Origin: Isurus oxyrinchus
Lineage: Eukaryota
NCBI GenBank assembly: GCA_026770705.1
Contig: JANJGN010000012.1
Location: forward strand, 101,432,001-101,496,000
DNA length: 64,000 nt
Direction of reading: 5' to 3'
In this document: in pieces, positions 14,450 to 53,800 of the stretch
Layout of the letters: the number at the start of each line of letters is the position of its first letter
Numbering within the stretch: position 1 is the stretch's first letter
Translations under genes and position numbers: made by a program
The notes under the pieces: generated by a model
What the model saw: the letters and a program-made list of their open reading frames with translations, nothing else
What the model was told of the DNA's origin: nothing
The model's database searches: none

Positions 14450-15991
14450 GGGCAGAATTTTCCATAAATGAGACTAAGTGCAGTGGCGGGCGGTTTTGGC
14501 AGTGCTGTTCCTGCCGACTGGATTGGCTGCAACTCACACCCAATTCTGTGCTTGGGGCCTCATTAATTATGCAGAGGTGCGTATTGGTCTGAATCACCAG
14601 GCAGGTCAGGAGTTGATTCATGTGGCCGCCGACAGCTGCTGGGTTCAAACGTATGGTCGCCATTTTTAAAGGTCAGTTCAACACACAATCTCACTCTCTG
14701 CAGCCCACCAGGGATGTCTGGCAGACAGGGGAGGAAGGCTGAGAGTCTGAAGATTAAGGTAGCACCCCACTTCACTCATCAGACCCTCTAGGCCTTGATC
14801 AAAGGAGTGTAGGAGCACAGGCAAATGCTCTATCCCAGGGATGGCTACAGCAGCACAGCAGCCTCACTTCTCCAGCCTGGGGGACCATCACAGAGAAGAC
14901 CAGTGCAGTTGGCACCCGCGCCCAAAGTGCCACCCAGTGCAGGAAGATGATGAATGATCTCATCCGCTCTGCCAGGGTAAATCATCCTTCAACGCCCTCC
15001 AATATCAAACTCTCATCATAGCATCATGCGCTCAAATGGCTACTGTCTTCAGGGATCTCATACAACCATTATCCGGGGAGACATATCAACACTCATTCTC
15101 TCACCGAGACTTTCACATCTATCATGTTGCTCACACTCCATCCTTTGGCCCTTCTGGGGAGGGCGCACCACACACAGGGTGCACCTCACCCAACCCTGCT
15201 CCATCTCTTCTCATCACCTGTCTTTCTTTCTTCTTCATACAAGCCAAGCTGGTGCACAACAGGTGCGAGAGAGCACAGACCAGAGGAGGTCTTGCAGCAA
15301 CAAGAGGCTAGAGGGTGACCCCAGAAAGGCCTCCATCATGCTCACCTTTTCCTCTCATTGCCATTCCCTCCCCTTTGCCCCACTCGTTTTCACCCTTCCC
15401 TCTCACTGCCATTCCACAGCCTTCCCTCCTCGTTGCCCCCATCGTGTTTGTCAACCTGACCCTCGCCTCACAGCCCACGTCGGTTGAAGTGCTAGCCTCT
15501 GACAGTGGAGGCTTGCATGAGTACCACAGCACAGTGGTATTCCTCGGGATAATGAAAGCAAAGAGAAGAAGCAGTCCAACACTGCAAACCCAACAGAGTG
15601 ATGTTCATTACAACAAGACCAGTGCAAAGCTATGGCAGCTATGTTCCACTCACCTCGAAGTTAGCAGTGGACCGAGGACCAACTTGTGCAGGCCACCCTT
15701 TTTCAAATGGATTTGAGGCGGACATGATTTCCCACTAGCGTGACGGAAGGTTGGAAGGCGTAGCAAGATTGAAGCAAGCAGCTATTTTAGTGAGCGTTCA
15801 TGACATGTTAATGAATGCAAATGTCATTTATGCCACAAACTGGTGGGATAACTGACCCGCCATGAAAACACCGTCGGGAGAATTGTGACTTGTTTTTATG
15901 ATGGCGGATTTTTGACTTTTTGCCTGCAGCTGGATTCTCTGCTCTCGCCCACCACGAGCCAAGCTGTGGGTGGGATAAGAGAATTCCAGCC
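14450..15991 (+). mobile_element. Internally deleted Harbinger retaining the Myb/SANT gene 5' exons, no transposase
   Basis: TIRs GGGCAGAATTTT / AGAATTCCAGCC; TSD TTG/TCG; VAPHFT..QCRKMMNDLIRSAR|GT intron|AKLVHNRCERAQTRGG. Confidence 0.85.
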
Positions 15992-16199
15992 TCGGACTGG
16001 AATCAAGCCATTGAGAACTGCAGCCTCCTAGTTCCAACTGGTATCTATAAGTAAGAAAATATTTGAAGCCTTTATCAGTTGGCAAGATCACCAATTAGTA
16101 TTGAAAACAAAGAAAACTGCGGATGCTGGAAATCTAAAACAAAAACAGAATTACCTGGAAAAACTCAGTAGGTCTGGCAGCATCGGCGGAGGAGAAAAG

Positions 16200-16238
16200 A
16201 GTTGACGTTTCGAGTCCTCATGACCCTTCGACAGAACT
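16200..16238 (-). ncRNA. Minimal type I hammerhead ribozyme in Penelope pLTR
   Basis: AGTT-CTGTCGA-A-GGGTC ATGAG GACTC-GAAA-CG-TC-AACT. Confidence 0.75.
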
Positions 16239-16639
16239 TGATTTCGAGTCCAGGAAAGAGTTGAAATATAAGCTGGTTTAAGGTGTGTGGGGGGGGGGGG
16301 GGGGGGAAGGAGAGAGAGAGAGAGACAGAGGTGCTTGTGTAGACAAACAAGCAGTGATAGAAGCAGATCATCAAAAGATGTCAGTAACAATGGTACCAAA
16401 GAACACATAGGTGTTAAAGTTAAAGTTGGTGATATTATCTAAACGAATGTGCTAATTAAGAATGGATGGTAGGGCACTCAAGGTACAGCTCTAGTGGGGG
16501 TGGGGGGAGCATAAAGGATTTTAAAATATTTAAAAATAATGGAAATAGGTGGGAAAAGAAAAATCTATAAAATTTATAGGGAAAAAAAAGGGGGAAAAAA
16601 AGGGGGAAACAGAAAGGGGGTGGGGATGGGGGAGGGAGC

Positions 16640-17358
16640 TCACGACCTAAAGTTATTGAATTCAATATTCAGACCGGAAGGCTGTAAGGTGCCTAGTCGG
16701 AAGATGAGGTGTTGTTCCTCCAGTTTGCGTTGGGCTTCACTGGAACAATGCAGTAAGCCAAGGACAGACATGTGGGCAAGAGAGCAGGGTGGAGTGTTAA
16801 AATGGCAAGCCACAGGGAGGTTTGGGTCATTCTTGCGGACAGACCGCAGGTGTTCTGCAAAGCGGTCGCCCAGTTTACGTTTGGTCTCTCCAATGTAGAG
16901 GAGACCACATTGGGAGCAATGAATGCAGTAGACTAAGTTGGGTGAAATGCAAGTGAAATGCTGCTTCACTTGAAAGGAATGTTTGGGCCCTTGGACGGTG
17001 AGGAGAGAGGAAGTGAAGGGGCAGGTGTTACATCTTTTGCGTGGGCATGGGGTGGTGCCATAGGAGGGGGTTGAGGAGTAGGGGGTGATGGAGGAGTGGA
17101 CCAGGGTGTCCCGGAGGGAGCGATCTCTACGGAATGCCGATAAGGGGGGTGAAGGGAAGATGTGTTTGGTGGTGGCATCATGCTGGAGTTGACGGAAATG
17201 GCGGAGGATGATCCTTTGAATGCGGAGGCTGGTGGGGTGATAAGTGAGGACAAGGGGGACCCTATCATGTTTCTGGGAGGGAGGAGAAGGCGTGAGGGCG
17301 GATGCGCGGGAGATGGGCCGGACACGGTTGAGGGCCCTGTCAACGACCGTGGGTGGAA
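16640..17358 (-). CDS. Penelope ORF C-terminal fragment (Cys-rich linker + GIY-YIG endonuclease), left arm
   Basis: CPRKRCNTC, NLVYCIHCSQCGLLYIGETKR...LQPSGLN; uninterrupted but 5'-truncated. Confidence 0.85.
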
Positions 17359-18235
17359 CTCCCACAGCTACCTCGACTACAGCTCCTCACACCCCGCTTC
17401 CTGTAAGGACTCCATCCCATTCTCCCAGTTCCTTCGCCTTCGTCGCATCTGTTCCGATGATGCTACCTTCAAAAACGGTTCCTCTGACATGTCCTCCTTC
17501 TTCCTTAACCGAGGTTTTCCACCCACGGTCGTTGACAGGGCCCTCAACCGTGTCCGGCCCATCTCCCGCGCATCCGCCCTCACGCCTTCTCCTCCCTCCC
17601 AGAAACATGATAGGGTCCCCCTTGTCCTCACTTATCACCCCACCAGCCTCCGCATTCAAAGGATCATCCTCCGCCATTTCCGCCAACTCCAGCATGATGC
17701 CACCACCAAACACATCTTCCCTTCACCCCCCTTATCGGCATTCCGTAGAGATCGCTCCCTCCGGGACACCCTGGTCCACTCCTCCATCACCCCCTACTCC
17801 TCAACCCCCTCCTATGGCACCACCCCATGCCCACGCAAAAGATGTAACACCTGCCCCTTCACTTCCTCTCTCCTCACCGTCCAAGGGCCCAAACATTCCT
17901 TTCAAGTGAAGCAGCATTTCACTTGCATTTCACCCAACTTAGTCTACTGCATTCGTTGCTCCCAATGTGGTCTCCTCTACATTGGAGAGACCAAACGTAA
18001 ACTGGGCGACCGCTTTGCAGAACACCTGCGGTCTGTCCGCAAGAATGACCCAAACCTCCCTGTGGCTTGCCATTTTAACACTCCACCCTGCTCTCTTGCC
18101 CACATGTCTGTCCTTGGCTTACTGCATTGTTCCAGTGAAGCCCAACGCAAACTGGAGGAACAACACCTCATCTTCCGACTAGGCACCTTACAGCCTTCCG
18201 GTCTGAATATTGAATTCAATAACTTTAGGTCGTGA
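17358..18235 (+). CDS. Penelope ORF C-terminal fragment (RT thumb, Cys-rich linker, GIY-YIG endonuclease), right arm
   Basis: SHSYLDYSSSHP..IPFSQFLRLRRICS, CPRKRCNTC, VYCIRC..LYIGET..RFAEH; uninterrupted. Confidence 0.9.
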
Positions 18236-18641
18236 GCTCCCTCCCCCATCCCCACCCCCTTTCTGTTTCCCCCCTTTTTTTCCCCCTTTTTTTTCCCTAT
18301 AAATTTTATAGATTTTTCTTTTCCCACCTATTTCCATTATTTTTAAATATTTTAAAATCCTTTATGCTCCCCCCACCCCCACTAGAGCTGTACCTTGAGT
18401 GCCCTACCATCCATTCTTAATTAGCACATTCGTTTAGATAATATCACCAACTTTAACTTTAACACCTATGTGTTCTTTGGTACCATTGTTACTGACATCT
18501 TTTGATGATCTGCTTCTATCACTGCTTGTTTGTCTACACAAGCACCTCTGTCTCTCTCTCTCTCTCCTTCCCCCCCCCCCCCCCCCCCCCCACACACCTT
18601 AAACCAGCTTATATTTCAACTCTTTCCTGGACTCGAAATCA

Positions 18642-18680
18642 AGTTCTGTCGAAGGGTCATGAGGACTCGAAACGTCAACT
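18642..18680 (+). ncRNA. Minimal type I hammerhead ribozyme in Penelope pLTR
   Basis: Stem I AGTT/AACT, core CTGTCGA...GAAA, stem II GGGTC/GACTC, palindromic ACGT stem III; predicted cut after GTC at 18676. Confidence 0.75.
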
Positions 18681-19063
18681 CTTTTCTCCTCCGCCGATGC
18701 TGCCAGACCTACTGAGTTTTTCCAGGTAATTCTGTTTTTGTCACCAATTAGTATAGCTGACTTTCAGCTAACATGAAAGAATGCAGTGAGTCTGTTGATA
18801 GAAGCACCAGTAAGAGTGCTCTCTGCCTCCAACCAAAGACACCACTAATGTCTCCCTCACTTATCTAAAGTCTTACCGAAACAAAGAAATCGCAGTACAT
18901 CTAGATAAAATACTGCAATAAGACGACTGCTGATTAGCCACCACTAAGCCCCTCGCTGCTACCTCCTACAAAGGCAGCCTCTAACCCATCCTTACTGGAG
19001 AATCCATAAGTCACCAAGCAATGTTTCTCCTTATCTTTCCTCTTGTTTACCCTGTTTGTCAAG

Positions 19064-20914: not shown

Positions 20915-21260
20915 AAAGAACACAAGGAATAGAAGCAGGAGCAGGCCATTCAGCTAGTCAGTAAAATTATGGTTGATCTTCTACAGCAACTCCACCTTTC
21001 TGCATTATCCCATATTCTTGATTCCCTTAGAGTCCAAAAAAATCTATCAATTGCTGTTTAGAATGCACTCCATGACTGAGCATCTATAGCTTTCTGAAGC
21101 AGAGAATTCAAAAGATTTACAACTCTTTGAGTGTAGAAATTTTTCTTCATCTCAGTCCAAATGACTGACCCTATATTCTGAGATTGTGACACCTAGCTCT
21201 GGACACCCCAGCCAGGGAAAACATCCTCCCAGCATCTAACCTATCAAGGCCTTAAGAATT
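20915..21260 (-). mobile_element. CR1 3' end fragment
   Basis: Typical CR1 3' UTR/ORF2 end, similar to 34141-34500. Confidence 0.75.
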
Positions 21261-21398
21261 TTAAGATAGAGATGAGGGGGAGTTTCTTCCCACAGGAGGT
21301 AGATATTCACTACCCCAGAGTGTAGAAATACCCCAGAGCATAGTGGAAGCTGGGTCATTGAATATATTCAAGGCTGAGCTAGACAGATGTTTGATCTT

Positions 21399-22163
21399 AA
21401 ACAAAAACAAAAATACCTGGAAAAACTCAGCAGGTCTGGCAGCATCAGTGGAAGGGAGCACAGTTAATGTTTCGAGTCCGCATGACTTTTCAACAGAATT
21501 AAGGAAAAATAGAAAAGGGGTGAAATATAAGCTGATTTAAGGCGAGGGGCGGTGTTGGGACAAGAGAGCTGGATAGAGGGCCAGTGATAGTGGAGATAAC
21601 CAAAAAATGTCACAGACAAAAGGACAAAGAGGTGTTGAAGGTGGTGATATTATCTAAAGGAATGTGCTGATTAAGGGTAGAAGGCAGGACAAGCAAGGTA
21701 CAGATAGCTCTAGTGGGGGTGGGGTGGGGTGGGGTGAAGGAATTGAAAAAGGCTAAAAGGTAGAGATAAAACATTGAATGGAAATACATTTAAAAATAAT
21801 GGAAATATGTGGGAAAAGAAAAATCTATATAAATTATTGGAAAAAACAAAAAGGAGGGGGAAAAATCAGAAAGGGGGTGGGATGGTGGAGAGAGTTCATG
21901 ATCTAAAATTGTTGAACTCAATACTTAGTCCGAAAGGCTGCAAAGTTCCAAGTCGGAAGATGAGGTGCTGTTCCTCCAGTTTATGTTGAGCTTCACTGGA
22001 ACAATGCAGCAAGCCAAGGACGGACATGTGGGCATGAGAGCAGGGTGGGGTGTTGAAATGGCAAGCGACAGGAAGGTCTGGGTAATGCTTGCGGACAGAA
22101 CGAAGGTGTTCTGCAAAGCAGTCACCCAGTCTGCGTTTGGCCTCTCCAATGTAGAGGAAACCG
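21399..22163 (-). mobile_element. 5'-truncated Penelope-like element (GIY-YIG end + pLTR with hammerhead)
   Basis: LYIGEAKRRLGDCFAEHL; 11-bp TSD TGTTTGATCTT (21388-21398, 22164-22174); hammerhead CTGTTGA...GAAACATT at ~21462-21499. Confidence 0.9.
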
Positions 22164-22539
22164 TGTTTGATCTTCATGGGAATCAAATGCTATTTTGGGG
22201 AAGGCAAGAAATTGGAGTTAAGGCCACAATCAGATCAGCTCTGACCTTATTGAATGGCAGAGCAGGCTGAGGGGCCAAATAGCCTGCTCCTGCTCCTATT
22301 TCTTATATGTACTAACGACCTACCTGCCTCACTGAAGGGGGCTTCCTGCATGTAGCCATGAGTTTAAAGGCAGAAGTCAGTGCCTTGCAGCTGGTTTCCT
22401 GACATGCCATCGATTTGAGTTTGTTTAACCAGCCATTCGCACCCAAACCCACCCACTTGCTTCAATGAGATCACTTCTCTAGAGAATTTAGGGTATGTTT
22501 TACTCAATCTTTCTTTATGGGCCAATTCCCATATCATAG

Positions 22540-22925: not shown

Positions 22926-23063
22926 AAATAAACTGGAAAGAAGCATTCAGTAAAGCCTTTTATCTCTGCCCTTGGTTTTTCTATTAAAGATGCATTATAG
23001 AACTAATTTTCACAATATCCCTTGTAAAACCCAAGTAGATAAACAATTTTTAACCTGAAAAAG
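22926..23063 (+). pseudogene. Possible exon relic, TAGT-like repeat 1 (ALG..PF..IFNL region)
   Basis: FISALGFSIKD...TIFNLKK resembles recalled GREB1 YALLGL...FIILNV; acceptor uncertain, 3' end interrupted by a repeat. Confidence 0.35.
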
Positions 23064-23589
23064 TGGGTGAGTTTGGGAGCGAATGGCTGGTTAAACAAAC
23101 ATAAATTGACAGCATGTCAGGAAACCAGCTGCAAGGCACTGACTTCTGCCTTTAAATTCAGAGCCATTGGCTACATGCAGGAAACCCCCTCCAGTGACGC
23201 AGGTAGATCGTAAGTGCATATAAGAAATAGGAGCAGGAGCCGGCCCCTCAACCTGCTCTACCATTCAATAAGATCATAGCTGATCTGATTGTGGCCTTAA
23301 TTCCACTTTCCTGCCTTCCCCCCAATAACCTTTGATTCCCATGTAGATCAAAAATCTGTCTAACTGAGCGTTGAATATGTTCAATGACCCAGTCTCTACT
23401 GTGCTCTGGTGTAGTGAATATCTACCTTCTGAGAGAAGAAATTCCTCCTTATCTCCACCTTAAATGGAGGACTCCTTATTTTGAAACACTTCCCCTTGTT
23501 CCAGAGTCCCCCATGAGGGGAAACATCCTCTCAGCACCTACCCTGTCAAGCCGACTCAAAATATTGTGTTTCAATAAAATTGCCACAAG

Positions 23590-26500
23590 TTCACGGACCA
23601 CAGTGTGTCTAATGTAGTGTCTTTCTTGAACTGAGTATAAGATGGCTGCCCCAGACATTCCCTCATGGCAGTGGTCACATGACTATGGCAAGCCAGGTAG
23701 GACATGTAGTAATGATTGCATGTCAAAATCCAAACATCCCCTTTTCCATAATGAACAACAGGCAACTATGCATGCAATATCATGTACAGCTGTGAGTTAC
23801 CCAAGTTACCCACTACACCACAACTGTTCTCATGCATTAACGAACTTTGTTATTCTTGTTAGTCTCTGAAAATGCATTACATACATAGTCGTTAAATCGT
23901 GCAGGTCTTTTGATGGTATGAGTGCACTTTATCATTGGCTGTTCATTTGGATGATGTTTCTTCTCCAGGGAGTGTCGTTCCCATTGCACTTGTTGTTGAA
24001 GTGGTAACTGTTGTTGTTGTTCCATTTCCATTGTTGGGGACCGGTGGACCTCTGGGAGTGATGGTTGTTCTCTACTCTGTGCAGCCCGTGTGAGCCCATC
24101 CTCCTGTTTGGCCACCTGAGGTGAAGGAACAACTTCTCTAGTTGTTCGTATATGCTTGTGGTTGCGCCAGTATATTTGATCATTCACTTCCATTATGTAC
24201 AATCGAGATGACAACAGCTCTGTGCATGTCCGAAGTTGCCACATGAGCTGACACATGTTGCCACATGCTCTATTTAAGAAAGGGACTATTAGAAGCACAC
24301 CAGTATGCTTACACACGAGCAGGATAGAGAGTTCATCCTGAGTGAGACACAGCCAGAGTGAGTGTGGGTATTAGCAATTTGGTGCACAGTGGGAATTTGG
24401 TGAAGAGGGGAAGAGGTGCTCTTTGCATTTTTTCTTTGCTATCCAACTTCTTAAATCTTCAGAGCGTGGTCTTGCCCTGTTGCAGAAGTAGAGGCTACAA
24501 GGGAGAGGAATGATTGGTAAGTAGTGGGTAAGGTAGGGTAAGTATTTACTACTTTTATTGCTTATAGTTTAAGGTATTTTTGTGGTTTATAGTTTTTATA
24601 TTCTATAGTAGTGAGGATCAGGAAAGAAGGGCCCTAGAGTAATTGATTTAAAAGGTTTAACTTAAAGAGTTAAGTCATGGCAGGAGTGCTCAAAGCCATG
24701 GTGTGCTCCTCGTGCTCCACATGGGAAGCAGGGAACATTTCCAATGCCCAGAACCAGCATGTGTGCAGGAAGTATGTCCAGCTTCAGCTCCTGGAAGCTC
24801 AGGTTTCAGATCTGGAACAGTGGCTGGGGACATTGTGGAGCATCCGTGAGTCTGAAAGCATTGTGGATAGCATGTTTAGAGAGGTCGTCACACTGCAAAT
24901 GAAGGGACTTGAGGAAGGAAGGGAATGGGTGACCACCAGGCAGTCCAAGAGAAACAGGTAGGTAGTTCAGGAGTCCCCTGGGGTCCTGCTCGCTAATCGG
25001 TATTCCATTTCAAAGGCTGATAAGGGTGCTGGTTCCTCCAGGAAGTGCAGACAGAGCCAATCTTCTGGCACCACAAGCAGTCTGACTGTACAGGAGGGGA
25101 TGAAGAGAGGAAGAGCAATAGTAATAGGGGATCCTTTAGTCAGGGGAACAGATAGGCGCTACTGCGGCCGTCAACTTGACTCCAGGATGCTGTGTCGCCT
25201 CCCTGGTGCTAGGGTCCGGAATGTCACTGCACGACTGCAGGACTCCCTGAAGGGGGAGGGTGATAAGGCAGAATTCATGGTACATGTTGGTACCAATGAC
25301 ATAGGTAGAAAGAGGAATGAAGTCTTGCATCAAAAATTCAGGGAGTTAGGCAGTAAACTAAAAAGCAGGACCTCTCGGGTTGTAATCTCTGGATTACTCC
25401 CAGGGCCACGTGCTAGCGAGCACAGAAATAGGAGAATAGCGCAGATGAATATGTGGCTTAAGAGTTGGTGCAGGAAGGAGGGTTTAAGATTCCTGGATCA
25501 CTGGGATCATTTCTGGGGGAGTTGGGACCTGTACAAGCGGGATGGCCTACATCTGAACCAGAGCAGGACTAACATCCTTGCGAACGGGTTTGCTGGTGCT
25601 GCTGGGAGGAGTTTAAACTAATTCAGCAAGTGGAGGGGACACAGAATGTTAGAAAATAGGGACACATCATAATACAGTAAAACAGTCAAGTCAGAGGGAA
25701 TACAGCTACATTAAGTTTCAAGGGAGTAAGGCAAGGCTGGATGGCCTCTACATTAATGCCAGGAATATTACAAGTAAAACGGATGAGTTAAGGGTGAGGA
25801 TTTACATGTGGAATTGTGATATAGTAGCCATCACAGAGATGTGGTTGAGGGAGGGGCAGGATTGGCTGTTCAACATTCTGGGATATAGAATCTTCAGACG
25901 AGACAGGGAAGGGGGTAAAAGAGAAGGAGGCATTGCATTATTAGTTAAGGAGTCAGTTACTGCAGTAAGGAGAGATGATATCTTGGAAGGGGCATCAAAT
26001 GAAGCTTTCTGGGTAGAGTTAGGAATAAAAAAAGAGGCAGCCACATTGTTAGGTGTTTATTATAGACCCCCAGATAGTCAGCTGGAAATTGAGGAGCAAA
26101 TATGTGCACAATTTGCGGAGGTATGTAAGAATAATAACAATAGGTTTCCCAACATTAATTGGGGTAGACACAGTGCTAAGGGCTTGGATGGAGTGGATTT
26201 CTTGAAATGTGTACAGGAGAACTTTTCAGGTCAATATGTAACGGGCCCATCAAGGGACAGTGCAGTGCTGGACCTAATTCTGGGGAATGAAGCCAGACAG
26301 ATGGCTGAGGCGATGGTGGGGGAGTATTTTAGTGAAAGCGACCACAACATGGTACAATTTAATCTTGTTATGGATAAAGAAATAGACAAGTTGCAAAAAA
26401 ATGTTTTGGATTGGGGAAGAGGGGCTTTTAGTAAAATCAGGCAGGATCTGACCAAGGTAGCCTGGGAACAGCTACTTGTGGGGAAATCTACAGAAGAGCA

Positions 26501-29500
26501 GTGGGAGGTGTTCAAAAAGGTAATGGGAAGTGTACAGGATCAACATGTTCTCTCTCAGGTGATAGGAAGGAGTAACAAGCCCAGAGAACCATGGATGACC
26601 AGATATATTCAGGATACAATGAGAAGGAAAAGAGAGGCTTTTAGCAGGTACAAGGGGAGCAAATTAGCAGAGGCATTAGTGGAGTACAGAAAGTGCAGGG
26701 TGGAGCTTAAGAAAGCAATTCAAAGAGCAAAGAGGGGATATAAGAAAAATCTGGCTGGTAAAAGTAGGGAAAATTATGTCAATGGTAAGAGAATAACCAG
26801 AGAAAGAGTAGGGCCCATTAGGGACTAAGGGGGCAAATTATGGGTGGAGCTAGAGGACATCAGTAGAGTATTAAACGAATACTTCACGTCCGTCTTCATC
26901 CAAGAGACTAAGGATAAAGGTATGGAACTCAGGGAGAGAGACTGCGAGGTTCTTGAGCAAATTGATATAGGGAGTGACAAGGTATTGGAGGTGTTGGCAG
27001 GCTTAAAAGTGGACAAATCTCCAGGTCCAGATTATTTGTGTCCCAGACTGCTGAGAGAGGCAACGGAGGAGATCGCAGGAGCTCTGACTCAAATTATTAA
27101 TTCCTCTCTGTGCGCGGGGGAGGTGCCAGAGGACTGGAGAACAGCTAATGTGGTTGCGCTATTTAAGAAGGGTTGTAGAGATTAGCCAGGGAACTACAGA
27201 CCTGTGAGTCTCACGTCAGTGGTAGGGAAACTATTGGAGAAAAATCTGAAGGAGAGTATCTATGTCCACTTGGAGAGGCAAGGTTTGATCAGGGATAGTC
27301 AGCATGGCTTTTCAGAGGGAGGTCAAGCCGAGCAAATTTGATTGAATTTTTTGGGAGGTGACCAGGTGTGTAGATGAGGGTAGTGCAGCTGATGTAGTTT
27401 ATATGGATTTCAGCAATGCCTTTGACAAGGTCCCACATGGGAGACTTATAAAGAAGGCAAATGCACAAGGGATACATGGTAATTTGAAAAGATGGATTCA
27501 AAATTGGCTTAGTTGTAGGAGACAGAGGGTGATCAGAGAAGGATGTTTTAGTGACTGGAAGCCAGTGTCCAGTGACATACCACAGGGATCTGTGCTGGGT
27601 CCTCTATTATTCATCACTTATATAAACAACATAGATGACTATGTAGGGGGTAGGATTAGTAAGTTTGCAGATGACACAAAGATTGGCCGGGTGGTTAACA
27701 GTGAGTTTGAGTGTCTTGGGCTACAAAAAAATATAGACGGGATGGTCAAATGGACAGATAAGTGGCGGATGGAATTTAACCCTGAAAAGGTGATACACTT
27801 TGGAAGGAGTAATTTGACAAGATAGTATTCAATGAGCAGCATGACACTAGGAAGTTCGAGGAACAAAGGGGCCTTGGCATGTATGTCCATAGATCTTTGA
27901 CGACGGAGGGGCATGTTAATGGGGTGGTGAAAAAGGCATATGGGACACTTGCCTTTATCAATAAGGCATAGATTACAAAAGTAGGGAGGTCATGTTGGAG
28001 TTGTATAGAACTTGGTGAGGCCACAGCTGGAGTATTGTGTGCAGTTCTAGTCACCACATTATAGAAAGGATGTGATTGCACTGGAGGGGGTGCAGAGAAG
28101 ATTCACCAGGATGTTGCCTGGGATGAAATATAATATTTAAGTTATGAAGAGAGGTTGGATAGACTTGGGTTGTTTTTTTTGGAGCAGGGAAGACTGAGGG
28201 GCGACCTGACCGAGGTGTTCAAGATTATGAGGGGCATGGACAGGATGGGTAGGGAGCAGCTGTTCCACTTAGTTGAAGGGTCAGTCACGAGGGGACACAA
28301 GTTCAAGGTGAGGGGCAGGAGGTTTAGGGGGATGTGAAGAAAACTATTTTACCTGCAGGGTGGTGACAGTTTGAAATGCGTTGTCTGGGAGGGTGGTGGA
28401 GGCGGGTTGCCTCACATCCTTTAAAAAGTACTTGGATGAGCACTTGGCACATCATAACATTCAAGGCTATGGGCCAAGTGCTGGTAAATGGGATTAGGTA
28501 GGTAGGTCAGGTTTTTCTCATGTGTCGGTGCAGACTCGATGGGCCGAAGTGCCTCTTCTGCACTGTGATTCTGTGATTCTGTGATGCTGACTCCTGTTAA
28601 GAGCATTGAAGGTTTGTACCCTGCCTGGCTCACCAACGCTCAAGTTTTGCAATGGTTTGGCAGTCCTGTCAAAATGAAATTTGGCTTTCTGCCATTTTAC
28701 CTTGATTTTTTCATTGACGTCTGTTACTACTTCTGGCTTCAGTAGCTTTTTTGCTTTTGGAGGAGTCATTTGGCTGTGATGTGATATTCGACTTTGGACT
28801 GGGCTATTTTCCATGCCTTTAGTTAGTGCATTTCTCCACTTGAGGATTGCCTTGTACACATCTGTGCTAGATTTGCTCAATTTCTTGACAATTCCTTTGC
28901 CGGTTTTTACAGTCACCTCAGCTTTTCTATTTGACTGGGGATAGAGTGGAGATAATGAATCGTGTTGAATTTCCCAATCCTTTGTGAAGTAGATGAATTC
29001 TTCACTCGTAAACTGAGGGCCATTGTCACTCATCACAATGTCTGGAATGCCGTACTGACTGAAGTGTGCTTTCAAGTATTCTACTTTCTTTCCTGTCGTC
29101 GTTGATGTCGGCTGGTCTATCCCCCAGTCACCGGAACAGTAGTCTACAGTGACAAGATAATCAGTTCCTGGCAAAGTGAAGAGGTGTACTCCCAGCTTCA
29201 TCCGTGGTCTGTCTGGGATGTTATGTATCATCAATGGCTCTCTAGCTTGTTTAGCTTGGTACTCATTACAAGCACTGCGCTGGCTGATGTGGTCTTTAAT
29301 TTTATTGCTCATGTTTGGCCAGAAGAGCACTTCTCTTGTCTTTCACAGACTTGATTAAATTCCTTCACTGGTCACATGGATGTGTTCAGCTCCTCCCATC
29401 TCCTCAGGTATGATGCCTCTATTTCCTTTGTACGAGATGCCATCTTGGGTTGTCAATTCATCTCAGTATGTCCAACATGCTCTTGTGACCACAGGTGTGC

Positions 29501-52293: not shown

Positions 52294-53800
52294 TGTTATG
52301 ACATGGCAGATGGTAATTGCCAGGCTGACCAAACCTCAAAGGAAAACTTGATTTATATCACGACAATTTTGCAATTTGTATTTATTATGAAAAGTTTTGT
52401 GCACTGAAGTCAGAAGCAATGAGTCCACATCCACCTCTAGAGATTTTAAATATTAGATTAAACCATTTATTAACAAAAGAAAAGAAAACTTAAACACATA
52501 AGATTACATTTGCACAGTTACATTTAGTTTTATAACAGTCCCCATAGGTTTCTACTTAACTAGACTCCCAACTACACACCACTTTCAGGTAACAATCCAA
52601 ATAGGTTAAGAATTTATTAAATCTATTAATCTCTTAAACATCCAGGAATATTACCACAAACACCCACTGCTGCTATAAGGGAAGTATTTCACATCTTCTC
52701 TCTCCTATCACTCGACAATGGAACACTTAAGGCTTTTAACAAAACCTTGGTTACTGGAAGAGCAAACTTCTCCAGTGTGGCTAGATACTGTTTTTTATAG
52801 GTCTGTTTCACACAGTGCACCTTTCAAGATCTCACATGGCCACACACATACAGCTTTCCATCTTTCTTTAAATATATTTTCTCCCTTTTGATCCAATGTT
52901 TCAACCTTTCTGAGGAAGTTACTTTTGCCAGAATATAAAAATCTTTAACAAAAATAGAATTACCTGGAAAAACTCAGCAGGTCTGGCAGCATCGGCGGAG
53001 AATAAAAGAGTTGACATTTCGAGTCCTCATGACCCTTATGCTGTCATTAGGGCCAGCACTCTCGGGAAAAATAAACTTAATAACTTTGCCTTATTTATCT
53101 TGTCAGTTGTAAATATCTTATCGTGTCCCTTTGAAAATCAAACAACCTCTCAATTTATCTAAAAATGCAAATTTCATTCACACATGTATCTGCTGTGACT
53201 TCATCCTACCTTACCCATCTTCATTTCAAATGCCTGTTTTACACCTAAGCCCTCTGATAATTTAAACCTGCCCTTTGATAACTTAAACCTTGCAGTCTGA
53301 CCATTTCTAGTTTAATAAAATTAGTCACACACATAAAAACATACATACACACACACAGTTCCCATAATCTTGCTTTAAAGTATCTCACCGTAAAATTAGG
53401 GAATAAAATGACCTTTCCTTTACACTCGGCATAACGTATCTCCTGGTCTACTCTACCATACATATGCTCTAGCAACTTCCACATTTCGACACGTCTATTG
53501 CTTTCTTTAGCATTAGTTTCTCATCTTTCAGTAGACTTACTCACATTGGGGGGGGGGGGGGGGGGAGGGCGGGGGGGGTGGGGGGTGGGGTGGGGGGGGT
53601 GGTCTCTCATAGCTAAGGCTAATCTATCTTTAATCAGATCATATTTTAGCTGTCTGAATTCACATGATTCTGTAAGCTGCATTCTGCCATGGTGTACTGT
53701 TCAATAATCTCATTTTCACTCTGAACTCTAGTTTTGAATATATAATGTTCATATGTAACATTCATTCAGAGCTCAAAATGTGCATTCAATGTATTCACAA
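52294..53800 (-). mobile_element. Solo LTR inserted in Gypsy gag
   Basis: TGTTATGAC terminus like the other long LTRs; TSD TCTCA/TCTCG; gag sequence resumes on both sides. Confidence 0.7.
52947..53037 (-). mobile_element. Short Penelope pLTR 3' fragment, truncated inside the hammerhead
   Basis: Near-identical to 16138-16228. Confidence 0.85.

Follow-up and report, generated by a model that had tools for sequence, protein, structure and literature searches.

Two 5′-truncated copies of a Penelope-like element lie head to head at positions 16088-18754 of the window, the 64,000-nucleotide stretch of Isurus oxyrinchus DNA analysed here, and together form a palindrome enclosed by a single target site duplication (TSD). 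The palindrome is genuine and young, and belongs to a kind already known. We consider it fairly probable that it arose in one retrotransposition event, in which target-primed reverse transcription from both target strands produced two cDNAs.

Gapped alignment of the two arms gave 1220 aligned columns with two substitutions (17192/17683 and 16920/17955) and two homopolymer length differences (1 nt at 18269 and 4 nt at 18570-18573). The flanking 14-bp TSD, TCACCAATTAGTAT, is exact and occurs exactly twice within the 64 kb window when both strands are scanned; its chance probability is about 1e-5, with 20 nt of slack allowed at both ends. This one duplication surrounds both copies, no other is found internally, and the 5′ ends of both copies abut at a single base. 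Whichever strand is read, a TSD copy is followed at its 3′ end, with nothing between, by antisense (cDNA) sequence, and neither half carries a poly(A) tail. The left 3′ end is longer than the right one by 37 nt, or by 38 nt if the shared base 18741 is counted as TSD.

The arms are not nested: the 37-nt tail is private to the left copy and the 158-nt spacer is private to the right copy. In family contigs from public sequencing runs, the spacer appears as the native continuation of the element, and the joint from 17358 to 17516 on opposite strands was carried by 43, 28, 23 and 18 contigs in the four runs analysed. Loose ends of family contigs show native element sequence on either side of base 17358, which leaves a microhomology of 1 nt at the junction. 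Both private substitutions sit in the left arm, the right arm carrying the family-majority letter of these contigs at both positions. An earlier note, made from the sequence, had described a head-to-head double insertion in a single perfect 14-bp TSD, with arms of about 1.22 kb that differ by about two substitutions and by homopolymer lengths, an unpaired spacer of 158 nt, a junction near 17358 with about 1 nt of microhomology and 3′ ends 38 nt apart. The arm alignment, the TSD search and the family contigs bear out this description throughout.

Table 1. Coordinates of the features of the palindromic insertion in the window
Feature	Position	Strand	Description
Left TSD copy	16088..16101	+	14 bp, AT-rich, contains ATT; three single-copy contigs stop matching at 16101
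Tail	16102..16138	-	37 nt, in the left copy only (long 3′ end)
Left arm	16139..17358	-	5′-truncated copy with 3′ UTR and pLTR end; 238 codons cover the linker and the GIY-YIG region
Minimal hammerhead-like motif, left arm	16200..16239	-	U at core position 6; recognised by eye from the features given in PMC4209133
Head-to-head junction	17358..17359	.	1-nt microhomology
Unpaired spacer	17359..17516	+	158 nt, native element sequence, in the right copy only
Open C-terminal part of the ORF	17360..18235	+	291 codons; RT C-terminal region, CX2-5CxxC linker, GIY-YIG with internal CxxC
Right arm	17517..18741	+	5′-truncated copy ending at the short 3′ site
Minimal hammerhead-like motif, right arm	18641..18680	+	Predicted cut after 18676
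Right TSD copy	18741..18754	+	14 bp; first base common to arm and TSD

The identity of the element as Penelope-like, also claimed in the earlier note, was supported by homologues, by a linker finger and by the GIY-YIG domain. The spacer and the right arm together hold an open frame of 291 codons, from which the reverse transcriptase (RT) catalytic core is absent. The GIY-YIG match in Pfam (E = 1.9e-4, 22.1 bits) falls slightly below the cut-off of 22.6 bits. A search of long proteins found 98 homologues among 2150 candidates, the best of which (E = 5e-109) is named from a shark, and the 12 homologues listed, 889-955 aa long, align with the 291-aa piece over their C-terminal third. The RT catalytic motif is present in 76 of the 98 homologues and DKG in 61. 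A single ORF with the RT followed by a C-terminal GIY-YIG endonuclease is characteristic of EN+ Penelope-like elements, and the homologues agree with this plan, the RT core being truncated in the present copy; the tail of 37-38 nt on one side and the adjacent inverted 5′-truncated copy within one TSD are further features of this group. A CX2-5CxxC motif lies in the linker upstream of GIY-YIG at residues 157-165, and a CxxC lies inside the GIY-YIG motif at residues 197-203, with a His further downstream at 238. Both the finger and the internal CxxC occur in 77 of the 98 homologues. The CxxC in GIY-YIG is a feature of EN+ Penelope-like elements, and the linker finger is one of the Neptune/Nematis clades (PMC8557442). 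The linker finger, whose absence characterizes Penelope/Poseidon, is present here, which places the element with the Neptune/Nematis clades, and the ORF is the RT-end and GIY-YIG part of a Neptune/Nematis-type element, a designation that covers both clades jointly. Translations of the pLTR or tail had no homology to the N-termini of the 98 homologues (best E = 6.1) and so gave no sign of an ORF start in the pLTR, and a 29-nt family motif had no matching stretch in metagenome contigs. Having lost the RT core by truncation, the insertion is unable to move autonomously.

Three further pieces of the same element group are present in the window, at 21394-22162 (73% identical), 52939-53037 (93%) and 1737-1833 (76%). 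Inverted structure is thus seen in one of four insertions, too few for a rate. Four of the five element ends stop at or within a few nucleotides of the short 3′ site, and the left arm alone is tailed. Among the three other copies, a TSD of at least 7 bp was found once (11 bp). It flanks an older single 5′-truncated copy on the minus strand (21388-22174), which sits in a short repeat; its last target bases resemble the start of the tail over 4 nt, which hints that primer and template paired at the short site. The pieces at 52939-53037 and 1737-1833, for which no TSD of at least 7 bp was found, are very short end copies whose 5′ ends lie within the hammerhead motif or just ahead of it.

In each of the four public runs, the family is very abundant. 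Some of its contigs contain head-to-tail joints that lead back to 16101-16145, and many leave at 16136 into long unlike sequence (89 in run X14), observations that fit tandem copies and a short end shared throughout the family. At 16688, 17425 and 17440, the share of the window's letter in summed depth, a rough measure that we did not take as copy number, is much larger in organism A than in organism B, which hints that a subfamily has spread in organism A. The arms agree at 18 of the 20 arm positions listed with another letter in family contigs, which indicates that both derive from one source lineage.

A search of public runs with the left flank matched 20 DNA runs, four of them with at least half of the words; no RNA run was among the matches listed, a result that is uninformative on expression. 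Contigs of the four runs were aligned to 15300-17516, which comprises the left flank, the left arm, the junction and the spacer. In run X1 (organism A), a contig of 2445 nt with a depth of 15.3 matches 15856-16101 with 0 differences and then continues for 2199 nt that do not fit the element. In runs X5 and X14 (organism B), contigs of 2375 and 2374 nt show 6 differences in 187 nt of flank and extend for a further 2188 and 2187 nt. All three contigs have single-copy depth and match the flank up to 16101, the last base of the TSD. If continued along the right flank, their ends would fall at 20953, 20942 and 20941, and contig ends are expected near these positions, because a repeat found again in the window at 20924-20950 would break a contig. 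Judged by this stop position and by the lengths, the contigs leaving at 16101 appear to represent the empty site in organisms A and B. In X2, no contig was found over 16037-16043 (in about half of the run), and none of the contigs listed bridges 16101/16102 or 17358/17359. The window sequence is the sole source for the insertion allele, and contig position and length are the source for the empty allele.

The arms diverge by 0.16% (95% range 0.02-0.59%); in the flank, the window and organism B differ by about 3% (23 differences in 762 nt that partly overlap). This comparison supports, in relative terms, the description of the insertion as very young in the earlier note, as do the apparent empty-site contigs. 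The insertion is recent and probably polymorphic, and most likely unfixed and functionless. It could serve as a presence/absence marker within the species.

The proposed event can be laid out in steps. The GIY-YIG domain would nick both strands of the AT-rich site 14 nt apart, as suggested by the TSD, leaving two 3′ overhangs. The top-strand end would prime cDNA at an outer start site on the RNA, giving the tailed left copy, while the bottom-strand end would prime at an inner site 37-38 nt upstream, giving the right copy. The cDNAs would stop after about 1.26 and 1.38 kb and be joined through 1 nt of homology, and their second strands would be filled by repair. The templates may have been two RNAs, or two repeats of one tandem RNA, of the same young subfamily. 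A single locus cannot show the order of events.

Biochemical work on a related element offers a basis for several of these steps. The purified Poseidon protein PAc nicks and extends both target strands in vitro, and its reverse transcription begins at two internal RNA positions separated by the tail of 30-40 nt (PMC11167929). According to the same report, identical start sites are used on both strands, AT-rich DNA with ATT is preferred and the protein is predicted to be a dimer; no finished inverted insertion figures among the products in the part of the report on which we draw. The earlier note had suggested that both nicked target strands primed cDNA at the RNA's 3′ end. Priming from both strands is indeed the likeliest route, but the position given for it needs correction, priming being internal to the RNA in PAc, the one element tested (PMC11167929).

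How Penelope-like elements make inverted copies has been named an open question (PMC8557442), and the arm geometry separates the models of insertion, since each arm has sequence that the other lacks. For this same reason neither arm is a fold-back copy of the other. Simple fold-back of a target-primed cDNA is excluded, because it gives nested arms and would copy flanking DNA instead of the tail. In the main rival account, self-priming, the cDNA or an antisense template would fold back, the endonuclease would clip one tail and the palindrome would integrate whole. We regard this route as unlikely, although several observations speak for it. Self-priming was proposed from palindromes at the inverted junctions of rotifer elements (PMC3846280), and the tail has been ascribed to endonuclease resolution of an intermediate (PMC8557442). 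A hairpin intermediate clipped at one end would yield the same end product, with the tail predicted on the shorter arm, as is seen here, and the arms do share one source lineage. A 5-bp stem with a 7-nt loop also spans the junction. However, a stem of this kind was matched by 8% of 18,599 simulated junctions, and it was rejected as a signal of self-priming; the 1-nt microhomology was likewise matched by 26% of the simulated junctions. Moreover, the 158-nt spacer does not make a tight turn, and later work linked the tail to a pair of RT start sites (PMC11167929).

Twin priming as in L1, in which the second target end would anneal inside the same RNA molecule, also gives an inversion in one TSD (PMC9148063), and a partial-tandem transcript would offer, in its upstream repeat, a second start site on the same RNA. 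On a single-unit RNA, however, it yields two different parts of the element, whereas here the same 1220 nt occur twice with terminal starts, and on a tandem RNA it becomes a sub-case of the two-cDNA explanation that is indistinguishable from it here; as a separate account we consider it very improbable. It is less likely again that the palindrome goes back to two independent insertions, or that inverted duplication or gene conversion created or homogenised it afterwards at the DNA level. The repeats of Penelope-like elements can be targeted by the elements themselves (PMC11167929), the family is abundant in every run, and gene conversion between the arms would mask their age, but a single TSD outside, none inside and 5′ ends meeting at one base speak against this origin, and a sample whose flank is identical apparently still carries the empty site, which leaves two events little time. 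Least credible of all is an assembly artefact, through a fold-back chimeric read or a misjoin at a high-copy repeat. The best-matching sample, which may not be the source of the window, has a contig that apparently crosses the site empty, and the contigs listed include none that bridges the insertion; contigs drop variants, however, hence this is no proof of absence. A fold-back chimera would also mirror the flank, whereas two different flanks are found here. Nor would it produce the direct 14-bp duplication, which ends where the empty-site contigs leave, the family-typical tail on one side only, or the private substitutions of one arm.

For the preferred reading, two cDNAs primed from both target strands, a more general form can be proposed. 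We lean, by a small measure, towards the view that non-nested palindromic insertions of this type are the footprint of a two-ended integration, in which a Penelope protein dimer would prime reverse transcription from the two nicks simultaneously, each with its own RNA and its own start site. If true, the inverted copy and the one-sided tail would be explained by a single mechanism. A literature search of titles and the opening parts of abstracts did not find this two-ended reading; its in vitro parts are published. The locus is a clean data point for two-ended priming versus a clipped hairpin, and a single locus is of little weight. A fish family that is still active, with very many young copies and a U at position 6 of the hammerhead core, would be suited to a count-based test of two-ended integration.

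The earlier note had also placed a ribozyme at the 3′ foot of a hairpin transcript, which now seems unlikely. The hammerhead-like motif of the minimal type is recognisable by eye in both arms, the predicted cut in the right arm lying 64 nt upstream of the short end and 102 nt upstream of the long one, but it is not the minimum-energy fold, another fold being predicted, and an Rfam search of the window gave 0 matches at the gathering score, this motif included. Folding of the 3′ ends revealed no significant structure (z = 0.32 and 1.06), and a stem reaching into the tail (z = -1.49) was equalled by 16 of 200 shuffles. Position 6 of the hammerhead core is U in both arms (18646-18652 and 16228-16234) and in the 73%-identical copy (around 21491-21497), and the copy at 1.7 kb has the usual A. 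Being common to both arms and to an older copy, the U6 core looks, on this sequence comparison, like a subfamily trait rather than decay; our literature search found no paper with the term A6U. Single minimal motifs of this hammerhead type did not cleave and were inactive as monomers (PMC4209133), and an A6C change is reported to lower Mg2+ activity sharply (PMC7151607). The motif at 18641-18680 pairs with 16200-16239, inside the duplex of the arms, so that a hairpin transcript would bring it into pairing with its antisense counterpart. This location, together with U6, makes a working ribozyme at the foot of the hairpin unlikely. The central 876 nt, if transcribed, are predicted to fold into a duplex of -857 kcal/mol, and a read-through RNA would thus be very stable as a duplex. 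As the earlier note had proposed, such a hairpin would be a candidate substrate for endo-siRNA production or ADAR; loci of that type are recognised by transcription of both arms together with small RNAs or A-to-I edits. Cruciform extrusion is less favourable with long spacers, and the more likely hazard is a hairpin formed on single-stranded DNA.

Several other repeats were observed in the window. An inverted pair of composite repeats (21260-22458 and 23061-23464), 74-86% identical and about 600 nt apart, has its left member split by the Penelope copy at 21.4-22.2 kb. A 94-nt inverted repeat (2136-2229 and 2582-2675; 97% identical, 352-nt spacer), whose arms occur nowhere else in the window, lies in an apparent decayed retroelement polymerase gene and is possibly a local inverted duplication. 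At 24962-27825 and 28518-29342, a decayed element carries a GDSL-like ORF and an exonuclease/endonuclease/phosphatase-family ORF, a combination that we take to be typical of a CR1-type LINE; an integrase-core fragment is also present and recurs about 15 kb further on.

The geometry of the insertion is no surprise. A head-to-head arrangement in a single TSD with a 30-40-nt offset between the ends is a pattern described for EN+ Penelope-like elements (Craig et al. 2021, PMC8557442; Arkhipova et al. 2013, PMC3846280), and the geometry is not new for this group; the locus is a clean and very recent example of it. As these reports describe, an inverted 5′-truncated copy often adjoins the 5′ end, head to head and within one TSD, a tail of 30-40 bp is often present at one end only, and the pLTR contains a hammerhead motif. 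The rotifer units are reported to lie within TSDs of 8-10 bp, shorter than the 14 bp found here, with a 31-bp tail and with head-to-head as the most frequent arrangement (PMC3846280). In the rotifer example described, an inverted pLTR of 181 bp accompanies a full ORF, whereas here both halves are truncated and nearly equal, with 1.22 kb paired; the present insertion also differs from the rotifer elements in having no significant junction palindrome and no direct (tandem) pLTR. Small RNAs have been reported on rotifer Penelope-like elements (PMC3846280).

The PAc element, a Poseidon of the green anole (Frangieh et al. 2024, PMC11167929), resembles the present one, as far as it is described there, in its two 3′ end sites with the tail between them, an AT-rich target with ATT, ends shortly downstream of the hammerhead motif and the use of both strands. 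It differs in belonging to the Penelope/Poseidon clade, which lacks the CX2-5CxxC linker finger found here, and in its start sites, described as AC-rich, while those of the present element are U-rich on the sense strand. The minimal hammerheads of metazoan Penelope-like elements (Cervera and De la Pena 2014, PMC4209133) share with the motif in the window a short helix I, an extra base before helix II, a G-C first pair of helix II and a palindromic four bases replacing helix III; core position 6, given as A in these hammerheads, is U in either arm of the insertion and in the copy at 21.4 kb that is 73% identical. In L1 twin priming, as described in PMC9148063, both target ends likewise prime cDNA and the inversion lies in one TSD, but the second primer pairs midway along the RNA, so that another segment is inverted, and a poly(A) is present. 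The difference from L1 twin priming stressed in the earlier note thus stands: both halves of the present insertion are the same 1220-nt 3′ segment, and neither carries poly(A).
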